Notes: generated by a model from the sequence alone, not told the origin. A DNA stretch of 64,000 nucleotides from an uncultured Myxococcales bacterium (GCA_964454015.1 CAYVQF010000030.1:420-64419); one strand, 5' to 3'. Shown: positions 22,214 through 24,113, numbered from the stretch's first letter. Numbers and translations are program-made.

Positions 22214-23509
22214 ATGAAGCAGGGACTCCAATCGCCTCAACTCACCGAATCAACCCAGGACAAGCAGGACAAAGCGCCCCTGCCTGAGGCCAAGGAGTCG
22301 ACCCAGCTCTACGCCACCCTGGGCGGTATGAGCTGGGAAGAGCAGGTGCAGTACCTGCAACCTGGCGCCGAAAACGCCAACGAAGTGACGCGCGAAAAGG
22401 GCCCTGAAGAGGCCGTGCCTGAGAGCGCCCCAGAGAAGGTCACCTGGCGCACGCCTCTGATCGCCGCTTGGGGTCAGGCGCGCTTCGACGCCCTCCAGCA
22501 GAAACTCGGCGGCCGCCTCTACGACCTCAACCTGGCCTTCAAGAGTGACCCCGACCGCATCGCCATCATCTGCGATCACTTCGAGCAAGCCCGGGCCCGC
22601 ACGGTGGCGCGCTGGCTCGCCAAGGACATCGCCGCCCATGAAGGCGCCTTTGGCCTCACGCCCCTGCTCAAGCTCATCGATCTCGGGCTCGACCTCGGCT
22701 GGACCACCCGCACGGTGAGCCAGACCATCGCTTCCTTGCACCAAGCCGGCATGGCGAGCGCTGGCTACACCTTGGTCCGCGCCGCGAGTGGCGCTGGTTG
22801 GAGCCAGGCCCAGCTCGCCGAGTGCGTCGCCGCGGCCCAGCGCCTCAAAGCCAGCGCCGACGACCTCCAGCGACTCATCCCCGCGGCGCAAGCGCGAGGC
22901 ATGGACGCCGAAGAACTCATGAGCCTCATGCGCCGCTTCGCCAAGACCCCCGTCGCCAGCCTGGCCGCCCTCCATATGATGCTCACCGACGCTGAGCCCA
23001 TCGGCGCCGACAACATCCGCGAGGCCCTCGAGATCTACCCCCTCTTCAGAGCCGGGAACACCACCGTCAAGGGCGGCGCGCCGCCGGCCGAGCAGGCCGC
23101 CAACACCAGCGCCCTCGAGATCAAGGCCGGCCCCAAAAACAAGCAGAGCAACGCCAAGGTCTACATCGCCGAAGGGGACATCCGCCACTACAAGTCGGGG
23201 CACTCCTATCCCGATTACGCCCTGACTCGCTCCAATATCCGCCGCGCCGACGTCTCCACCATGTTTCCCCTCGACTTGGACATCACGGCCGCAGCGGATC
23301 AGGCCCTGCGCGACAACCAAGCTCGCCTCACCCGGCAGATGGGCAAAGGCCTCAAGGACTACCGCGGCGCTTTCGGCGAGAACTACTGTGGCTTCCAGGT
23401 GGTCGGCCCCGAAGAGATGCGCATGACGCAGTTCTACCCCGCCAATGGCTTCGGTGAGCCGCGCTCCAAGCTGACCCTGCTCGCCGTCAAAGCCCTGGTT
23501 CAGCCCTGA
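22214..23509 (+). CDS. Hypothetical protein, possible polymorphic toxin (EndoU-like C-terminus)
   Basis: GGAG RBS; C-terminal RHYKSGH...STMFP...TQFYP. Confidence 0.6.
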   Translation: MKQGLQSPQLTESTQDKQDKAPLPEAKESTQLYATLGGMSWEEQVQYLQPGAENANEVTREKGPEEAVPESAPEKVTWRTPLIAAWGQARFDALQQKLGGRLYDLNLAFKSDPDRIAIICDHFEQARARTVARWLAKDIAAHEGAFGLTPLLKLIDLGLDLGWTTRTVSQTIASLHQAGMASAGYTLVRAASGAGWSQAQLAECVAAAQRLKASADDLQRLIPAAQARGMDAEELMSLMRRFAKTPVASLAALHMMLTDAEPIGADNIREALEIYPLFRAGNTTVKGGAPPAEQAANTSALEIKAGPKNKQSNAKVYIAEGDIRHYKSGHSYPDYALTRSNIRRADVSTMFPLDLDITAAADQALRDNQARLTRQMGKGLKDYRGAFGENYCGFQVVGPEEMRMTQFYPANGFGEPRSKLTLLAVKALVQP

Positions 23510-23573
23510 GTGAGCCCGCCACGCGCTGCTGCTGCGGACGTGGATCCCAAGATAGTAACAAAGGATTGCCGGT

Positions 23574-24113
23574 ATGTACCCTAGCGCACCCAGCCAGACG
23601 GCGCCGCGCCACATCGCCCTCGGCGCCTACGACACCAGCGGCGACCGCACGGTGCTCCTGAGCGACGTCCTCGCCGGTGAGGTCGCCCCCGACGCCATCG
23701 AGCCCGGCGACGCGGTCATTGCCCTCTGGGATGGGGCGCAGGTCTACCTGCGCGAGGTTTGGAATTTCGGGGACTTGGAGCACATCACGCGGCAACTGGC
23801 CCTGGTGCGCGCGCGCCTGGCCGCGGGCCAAGTCGCCCTGCTGCGCTCGACCTTCCTCGACGAGCTCAAGGTGCCCTTTTTGCACTGGGCACCCGATGCG
23901 GCCGGCCACACAGCGGTCACGACCTTCTTCGTCACCGAAACCGAAAGCAACGCCATCTTCCCCGACGGCGCCGACAGCGACACCCTCTATGCCCACGTCG
24001 CCGCGGCTTGGGAGCAGCTCGAGCGCCGCCCGGTCTGTGTGCTGCCCACCTCAGCCCTGGTGACCGACCTGGACGCGGCGCTTGCCGAGGCGCAGCGCTT
24101 TCTTTCGTTATAA
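23574..24113 (+). CDS. Hypothetical acidic protein, possible immunity protein
   Basis: 179 aa, directly downstream of and co-oriented with the putative toxin; no signal peptide. Confidence 0.55.
   Translation: MYPSAPSQTAPRHIALGAYDTSGDRTVLLSDVLAGEVAPDAIEPGDAVIALWDGAQVYLREVWNFGDLEHITRQLALVRARLAAGQVALLRSTFLDELKVPFLHWAPDAAGHTAVTTFFVTETESNAIFPDGADSDTLYAHVAAAWEQLERRPVCVLPTSALVTDLDAALAEAQRFLSL

Follow-up and report, generated by a model that had tools for sequence, protein, structure and literature searches.

Among the closest described counterparts of the gene pair studied here are the eCIS toxins that bear DUF4157, a PVC metallopeptidase (Zhang 2012 PMC3482391; Geller 2021 PMC8213781; Danov 2024 PMC11297309; AlgoCIS Cgo1/2), in which a hydrophilic N-terminus precedes a variable C-terminal toxin, an arrangement that we also find here. 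The N-termini of eCIS-associated toxins are described as hydrophilic and free of a Sec signal (PMC11297309). The DUF4157 toxins are well established, and most of them are said to lack immunity genes (PMC8213781, PMC3482391). Loading in AlgoCIS needs a disordered N-terminus and can do without DUF4157, and loading sequences are regarded as system-specific (bioRxiv 2026.05.27.728243). No conserved eCIS loading sequence is reported in the portions of PMC11297309 and bioRxiv 2026.05.27.728243 available to us.

On the side of the enzymes, the features that unite the RNase A-like and EndoU toxins of bacteria are a pair of His residues near the N-terminus and a terminal strand with an aromatic residue next to Pro (PMC7297114). 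The two His residues are 5-6 apart in the bacterial RNase A-like toxins, including CdiA(Ykris) with H170/H175 (5 apart), and 12-18 apart in the EndoU toxins (PMC7297114). The terminal strand of EndoU bears Ser/Thr (bioRxiv 2026.08.28.747851).

Here we describe two adjacent genes in a window of 64,000 nucleotides (the whole stretch of DNA analyzed) from an uncultured Myxococcales bacterium. We propose that the 431-aa product is an eCIS cargo toxin with a C-terminal RNase of the RNase A/EndoU superfamily and that the 179-aa neighbor is its immunity protein. As the steps of this account (the toxin-immunity pair, the RNase, and the loading into eCIS) are correlated, we set its overall probability at about 0.6.

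Gene pair and genomic context

The two ORFs are both on the plus strand with 64 bases between them (Table 1). The frames given in the original prediction, of 431 and 179 aa, were recovered and every motif quoted from them was found. The flanking genes were named there as the housekeeping genes ilvA and rlmI; by Pfam, the first is indeed ilvA-like (PALP+ACT) and the second rlmI-like (PUA+SAM methyltransferase). No Pfam family above the cut-off and no NCBIfam entry matched the 431-aa or the 179-aa protein, and neither has a paralog in the 5.9-Mb genome of the bacterium.

Table 1. Features of the predicted toxin-immunity locus (positions in the window) and eCIS-related genes on other contigs of the same genome.
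Feature	Position	Strand	Details or basis
Predicted toxin gene	22214..23509	+	431 aa; alternative start 22172 gives 445 aa
Hydrophilic acidic N-terminus, residues 1-75; candidate loading sequence	22214..22438	+	KD, pI
Leader motif L36-P50 (LGGMSWEEQVQYLQP), divergent member of consensus	22319..22363	+	Motif searches
Toxin middle region, three Gly-Trp/Met repeats	22439..23035	+	Homolog alignment
Predicted RNase domain, residues 275-431, RNase A/EndoU superfamily	23036..23506	+	Conservation, fold model
Predicted cognate immunity gene	23574..24113	+	179 aa, pI 4.5, Whirly/Pur-like fold as in CdiI(ECL); co-conservation, fold model
eCIS-related genes outside operon (VgrG-like OB, PAAR, third gp19 tube)	C4:144135-144995, C46:1909-2238, C71:23578-24036		

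The isoelectric points agree with the basic C-terminal domain and the acidic partner expected at the outset, being 4.4 for toxin residues 1-75, 8.8 for residues 317-431, and 4.5 for the partner. The first 35 residues of the toxin are hydrophilic (mean KD -1.24) and every 19-residue window stays at or below 1.1, so that the toxin carries no Sec signal, as had been supposed. Residues 1-75 are likely disordered. The middle region, presumed to be helical, contains Gly-Trp/Met repeats about 33 aa apart (G162, G195, and G229), which are common to the homologs P0003 and P0005.

The plus strand of the pair had been regarded as anomalously rich in C. This does not hold on the coding strand, where, among 4,234 ORFs that are likely coding, the GC skews of the toxin and partner genes (-0.147 and -0.111) rank at the 30th and the 37th percentile, and the ilvA-like gene, read on its own coding strand, is comparable (-0.136, 33rd percentile). 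GC3 is also host-like (0.85/0.87 for the pair vs 0.85 for the ilvA-like gene). Thus, we rejected the C-richness as a sign of transfer and regard it as a strand artefact. The DNA was present in sludge metagenome runs, and no joint skipping the pair was seen in four DNA runs, in which no contig spanned the pair.

Predicted C-terminal nuclease domain

The C-terminal 157 residues of the toxin represent an unnamed family with 12 relatives (13 sequences aligned). Nine relatives were kept from the 11 non-self phmmer hits among 1.84 billion representatives, and three genome loci were added, one from 400 genomes of the phylum and two from a single genome among 147 that belong to another order. The remaining phmmer hits, P0008 (a repetitive Cna-B protein) and P0010 (a fish protein), were dropped as spurious, as was a plasmid match (H1), which is an HTH regulator. 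The 400 phylum genomes also yielded a weak match (G087/L005; E 4e-4) to the middle region only. For one near-identical homolog, the contig was retrieved by scanning metagenomes. The word-indexed 5.8-billion search returned no homologs of either protein (alignment gave only known rows), the toxin-pattern search of genome contigs and the viral contigs gave none, and PDB sequence searches returned nothing relevant.

D322, H325, H330, N341, P409, and G412 are invariant in all 13 aligned domains, and P352 and R403 are near-invariant. H325 and H330 are thus 5 residues apart. The terminal strand was originally described as T-x-(Y/F)P. It actually reads Q-F-Y-P, in which Q406 is near-invariant (10-sequence alignment) and the aromatic Y408 stands next to P409. 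The GGAPPA stretch had been taken as a linker; we regard it as part of the domain because it recurs in the homologs and is modeled at a pLDDT of about 91.

AlphaFold2 modeled residues 275-431 with a pLDDT of 90.9 and a pTM of 0.86. Foldseek found no match at E<=1e-3 for the toxin model or the partner model, and its weak top rows for the toxin included RelE/ParE/HigB and a CdiA toxin. In a wide structural search, CdiA-CT(Ykris) (5e3e_B) came first with a middling Z of 5.4 (86 residues, 3.5 A, 13% identity; the tool warns that Z under 8 may reflect a common arrangement), followed by a Serratia CDI chain (7m5f_C, Z 5.1). Many of the remaining matches were RelE/ParE/BrnT/CdiA-type folds, and the EndoU matches scored Z 2.8 (5hkq_A) and 2.3 (9ftw_B). 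A second structural comparison, in which nsp15 scored Z 3.3, also placed the toxin model nearest to 5e3e_B. The ends of the structurally aligned ranges are compatible with the equivalences Y408 = Y278 and Q406 = T276, which were assigned by motif position, not by superposition.

Conservation and fold together support a predicted nuclease of the RNase A/EndoU superfamily. The original term 'EndoU-like' likely had the superfamily right and the branch wrong, as the His spacing of 5 and the best fold match, CdiA-CT(Ykris), favor the RNase A-like branch. That the domain is a classical bacterial EndoU toxin (PF14436) appears very improbable to us. T349-M-F-P352 does resemble the motif S/T-x-FP, which we take to be characteristic of EndoU and which is visible in the PF14436 matches. 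An Atlas neighbor cluster of the toxin, with PF14436 in 38% of its members at a score of 0.89, points the same way (the Atlas scores, <=0.90 for the toxin part and 0.82 for the partner, are leads only), and so does one of the 13 family members with an E of 0.11 to PF14436. These resemblances are outweighed by the His spacing of 5 vs 12-18 in EndoU toxins (PMC7297114), by Gln at the last-strand position of the EndoU Ser/Thr (by motif, not superposition), and by the Z of only 2.8 to 5hkq_A. The PF14436 profile did not match the toxin itself, and the PF18431 profile matched none of the 13 members at E<=1, G268 included. The hhalign comparison with three PF18431 and nine PF14436 matches had low power, the positive control of RNase A vs EndoU reaching 2%.

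Compared with CdiA-CT(Ykris) (PDB 5E3E, PF18431), the domain shares the His pair 5 apart, the terminal aromatic-Pro strand, and the C-terminal position in a toxin with an immunity gene downstream. On the other hand, it differs in the low identity, the lack of a PF18431 match, a Gln where CdiA-CT(Ykris) has Thr276 (judged by motif position), an extra C-terminal helix, an invariant Asp/Asn, and carriers of the eCIS type instead of CdiA. With the bacterial EndoU toxins (PF14436; CdiA-CT STECO31, PDB 5HKQ), it has in common the superfamily, two N-proximal His residues, and the S/T-x-FP-like motif, whereas the His spacing, the last-strand residue, the lack of an invariant Lys, the lack of a profile match, and the low Z separate the two. 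An SRLase1/BECR-like identity was set aside because the conserved residues described for it are different ones (R70, D72, H85, and H97; bioRxiv 2026.09.18.752725). Altogether, the domain likely acts in the manner of the bacterial RNase A-type toxins and belongs to neither PF18431 nor PF14436, and we consider it probable that the toxin is an RNase. We found no description of the nuclease family or the immunity family in the literature; the tables and HMMs of the BECR preprint (bioRxiv 2026.08.28.747851) or eCIS toxin datasets could already contain the domain.

Predicted immunity partner

A homolog of the 179-aa protein lies directly downstream of the domain in all four other loci for which DNA was at hand, within a few bases of the toxin stop. 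The homolog in L002 shows 30% identity (E 3e-18), that in G268 is fused to an FGE-sulfatase domain, and G426 has two, one of which is frameshifted. With P0002 as the sole query, three of the four downstream partners were found (E 5.5e-13 to 3.8e-6), and a 3-sequence profile found both partners outside it (2.7e-21 and 3e-7); there was no other significant partner match among 64,738 six-frame ORFs of the host genome and the loci. The reverse search with the partner in 400 genomes retrieved G268 and one partial copy in G174. The latter (L016, G174:C74:34074-34316) is an immunity-like stretch with no nuclease upstream, in a mosaic-looking region.

The partner model (pLDDT 85.2) matched CdiI(ECL) best (PDB 4NTQ, chain 4ntq_B; Z 8.2, 125 aa, 3.5 A), the only match with Z>=8 among 48,161 chains, and then Pur-alpha (Z 6.7), CdiI 5ffp_B (Z 5.8), and, further down, T7SS chaperones (Z 4.3-4.4). 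The partner thus resembles CdiI(ECL) and the Whirly/Pur folds, with an identity to CdiI(ECL) of 6%; CdiI(ECL) differs in blocking a colicin E3-like rRNase, a different type of toxin. The CdiI of Ykris is all-helical (PMC9086364), whereas the partner here is Whirly-like in its model.

It had been claimed that immunity is encoded downstream of the toxin, and the co-conservation in the four other loci and the CdiI-like fold support this for the present pair. An inhibitor is the simplest reading of a protein that is acidic, has an immunity-like fold, and follows a basic domain across unrelated carriers. Thus, the 179-aa protein is likely the immunity protein of the toxin, and it is very probable that the two form a toxin-immunity pair in which the partner binds the toxin and blocks its active site in the producer. 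We also considered that the domain might instead be a DNase, some other enzyme, or inactive, with a partner that acts as a chaperone or adaptor and not as an antidote. The middling fold scores of the domain, the lack of family profile matches, and the similarity of the partner to Pur-alpha and T7SS chaperones would be in keeping with such a pair. It is nevertheless decidedly unlikely, as the invariant His pair and the terminal aromatic-Pro strand are the features that define the RNase A/EndoU superfamily (PMC7297114) and the acidic partner tracks the domain.

Carriers of the domain and eCIS of the host

The domain forms the C-terminal end of proteins that differ in their N-termini and range in length from about 300 to 1,828 aa. 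DUF4157/eCIS_core is N-terminal to the domain in four homologs, namely P0004, P0005, G268 (1,828 aa), and G426 (1,822 aa). P0003 and P0009 start with the motif LQ-x-x-x-GN-x-AV, which we take to be an eCIS-type cargo motif. In P0006, the N-terminus is short and of low complexity, and those of the remaining five homologs are cut or uncertain. DUF4157 is absent from the 431-aa toxin and the genes adjacent to it.

Two of the loci deserve a separate description. The 1,828-aa carrier (L006:4109-10967, G268:C63) has a nucleotidyltransferase-like motif before the nuclease, recognized by eye with no Pfam hit, and this locus, with the FGE-sulfatase fused to the partner, may perhaps be a double toxin with double immunity. 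In L002:2089-4080, the pair is followed by two more ORFs with low-complexity N-termini. LQ/IQR motifs recur in the second of these, and the arrangement suggests a small array of toxins.

The host genome contains an eCIS operon on contig C36 with Pvc16_N, two sheaths, two gp19 tubes, CIS_tube-LysM, a GPD-like hub (below cut-off), gp25, Baseplate_J, and Tail_P2_I (E 5.5e-13). The machinery is split: the operon (C36:17300-36700) is without the VgrG-like OB, PAAR, and ATPase genes, which are found on other contigs (see Table 1 for the first two), and includes a 1,625-aa unannotated ORF. Seven AAA ATPases were identified as Pvc15-like by a motif that we presume to be of the Pvc15 type. The genome also encodes two DUF4157 proteins, C2:223222-226203, in which DUF4157 is C-terminal, and C16:41658-43256, of which the N-terminal MSPEEAAAL is loosely similar to the leader described below (no score). 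The toxin-immunity pair is on contig C30 and not within about ten genes of the operon.

The VipB/TssC sheath had no match in the host genome, which is 96% complete, and the E. coli control was positive. The SitA lipoprotein toxins of myxobacteria are recognized by an N-terminal lipoprotein signal. No such signal was found on the toxin, which has no hydrophobic N-terminal stretch and its first Cys at residue 120. Of the routes left open at first (T6SS, eCIS, or other), the choice narrows to eCIS from the operon and the links to DUF4157, and no sheath of the T6SS was found.

Compared with the eCIS toxins known so far, the toxin is alike in that its homologs carry DUF4157 and its genome encodes an eCIS. 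It differs in having no DUF4157 and being unlinked to the operon, in having a cognate immunity gene, which most of the known ones are said to lack (PMC8213781, PMC3482391), and in a leader that is conserved in sequence, no conserved signal being detected according to the available portions of PMC11297309 and bioRxiv 2026.05.27.728243.

N-terminal leader motif

The leader has the consensus L-[RK]-G-[MKL]-[ST]-[YF]-[ADE]-E-[GQ]-x3-L-x-P, lies near residue 36, and heads the 41 diverse Myxococcota proteins examined. A strict DNA pattern based on GMSWEEQxxxLxP matched in 3 of 300 other genomes of the phylum, with no match for the reversed control. Val follows Gln in each of the three matches, at a position that the pattern left unspecified. 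In the order holding two of the strict matches, a broader pattern matched 38 times (30 of the 38 loci were retrieved), spread over 13 of 18 genomes, vs 3 times for the control, and a second variant pattern gave 11 matches in 8 of the 18 genomes vs 0. The members resemble the copy of the toxin by construction at the specified positions; Leu at -2, outside the search patterns, is shared by 37 of the 41 proteins and the toxin. In 34 of the 41, an ATG occurs within 60 codons upstream, and the Gly of the motif is at residue 30-41 in 25 of these (median 36), a result bounded by construction by the 60-codon limit. The start at 22214 puts the leader Gly of the toxin at residue 38, near this median.

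Beyond the leader, 39 sequences fell into 29 groups. Pfam detected DUF4157 in seven of the 41 proteins, close behind the leader, the other 34 being without it in the retrieved part. Calpain (three proteins), PG-binding (three, one with SLT), Tae4, Tse3_N (a short match), HicA, transglutaminase, and GH46 domains were also found, while 25 proteins had no Pfam hit and 11 were cut by the locus edge. An unrecognized N-terminal signal had been postulated from the toxin alone, and the recurrence of the motif and its ties to DUF4157 and toxin domains strengthen that idea. We found no description of the leader motif in the literature (note that a motif is hard to find by words). In the order of G153/G126, one exact pattern marks up to seven leader-tagged genes per genome (L044-L080), most of them with unannotated C-termini, which are candidates for new effector families.

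The copy of the toxin is a divergent one. A matrix built without it ranks it first among 7.7 million windows of the host genome at 20 bits, compared with up to 17 bits by chance and 33-47 for the members (scored with themselves included); its HMM E-value is 2.1, and the VQ motif present in 23 of the 41 proteins is absent from it. Searches with tblastn, a regex, an HMM, and a PSSM found none of the other copies with different C-termini in the same genome that the original prediction had put forward as a check; the PSSM hit ranked second was rejected, as it falls inside a metabolic enzyme-like ORF. Relaxed patterns matched at chance level, with 3 vs 4 for the control across the class of the genome and 7 vs 11 in five sequence sets, from which one true copy emerged.

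These observations can be set against an account in which an eCIS-type pair came from another lineage, carries a leader that the host eCIS does not read, and is kept as an intracellular toxin-antitoxin module. The pair was not found in the 40 relatives searched, the leader is single, divergent, and rare in the class of the genome, and loading sequences are reported to be system-specific (bioRxiv 2026.05.27.728243). Nonetheless, both frames are intact, the leader keeps its spacing and usual position, the composition is host-like, and the host has a full eCIS set; we hold this account to be unlikely. Export of an RNase pair by a route other than eCIS (T6SS-like, outer-membrane exchange, vesicles, or lysis), of which the leader would be the mark, is similarly unlikely. 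The T6SS-type effector domains Tae4 and Tse3_N among the leader proteins, the 34 of 41 without DUF4157 in the retrieved part, and the distance of the pair from the eCIS genes speak for such a route. It is opposed by the absence of VipB/TssC from the host genome, by the lack of a Sec or lipoprotein signal, and by DUF4157, which stands closely behind the leader in seven proteins and heads four carriers of the same nuclease. We therefore retain eCIS as the route and somewhat favor the view that the hydrophilic N-terminus and the leader are recognized for loading with no need of DUF4157.

The gp19 tube was found in all five genomes chosen for the leader or the nuclease, in 17 of 18 genomes of the leader-rich order (one 67%-complete leader genome was without it), and in 70 of 150 other genomes of the phylum. 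As gp19 is so frequent and kin are not independent, its co-occurrence with the leader gives modest to weak support. The distribution of gp19 in the phylum sample is strongly family-wise (e.g., 12/12 and 11/11 vs 0/9).

Proposed mechanism and implications

In the mechanism that we propose, the toxin and its partner would be co-expressed, and the partner would cap the His cleft and block the active site in the producer. A Pvc15-type AAA ATPase would engage the N-terminus and the leader and thread the toxin into the tube without the partner. After injection, the toxin would refold, and H325 and H330, with N341, R344, R403, Q406, and Y408, would cut RNA metal-free by acid-base catalysis, stopping translation in a competing or prey bacterium. 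The repeats in the middle region may serve as a spacer or an entry aid.

The pair is likely an antibacterial toxin-immunity pair of the eCIS-cargo class made up of two unnamed families, and the cognate immunity gene argues for bacterial targets. It thereby contributes one nuclease family and one immunity family, neither of which carries a name, the logic of toxin and immunity itself being familiar. The most interesting feature of the pair is the shared leader. We put forward, tentatively, that in Myxococcota this leader, about 35 residues from the start, is what Pvc15-type ATPases recognize for eCIS loading, whether DUF4157 is present or not, and that it marks genome-wide arsenals of mostly unannotated toxins; the toxin described here would be one such cargo, its RNase family being new and standing between the RNase A-like and the EndoU branch, and its partner would belong to a new Whirly-fold immunity family. 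For the selection of eCIS cargo, the leader is a directly mutable candidate signal, with 15 residues at a near-fixed position in dozens of unrelated toxin-like proteins. It may also serve as a search tag for orphan effectors missed by DUF4157- and operon-based screens, given that 25 of the 41 tagged proteins had no Pfam hit.
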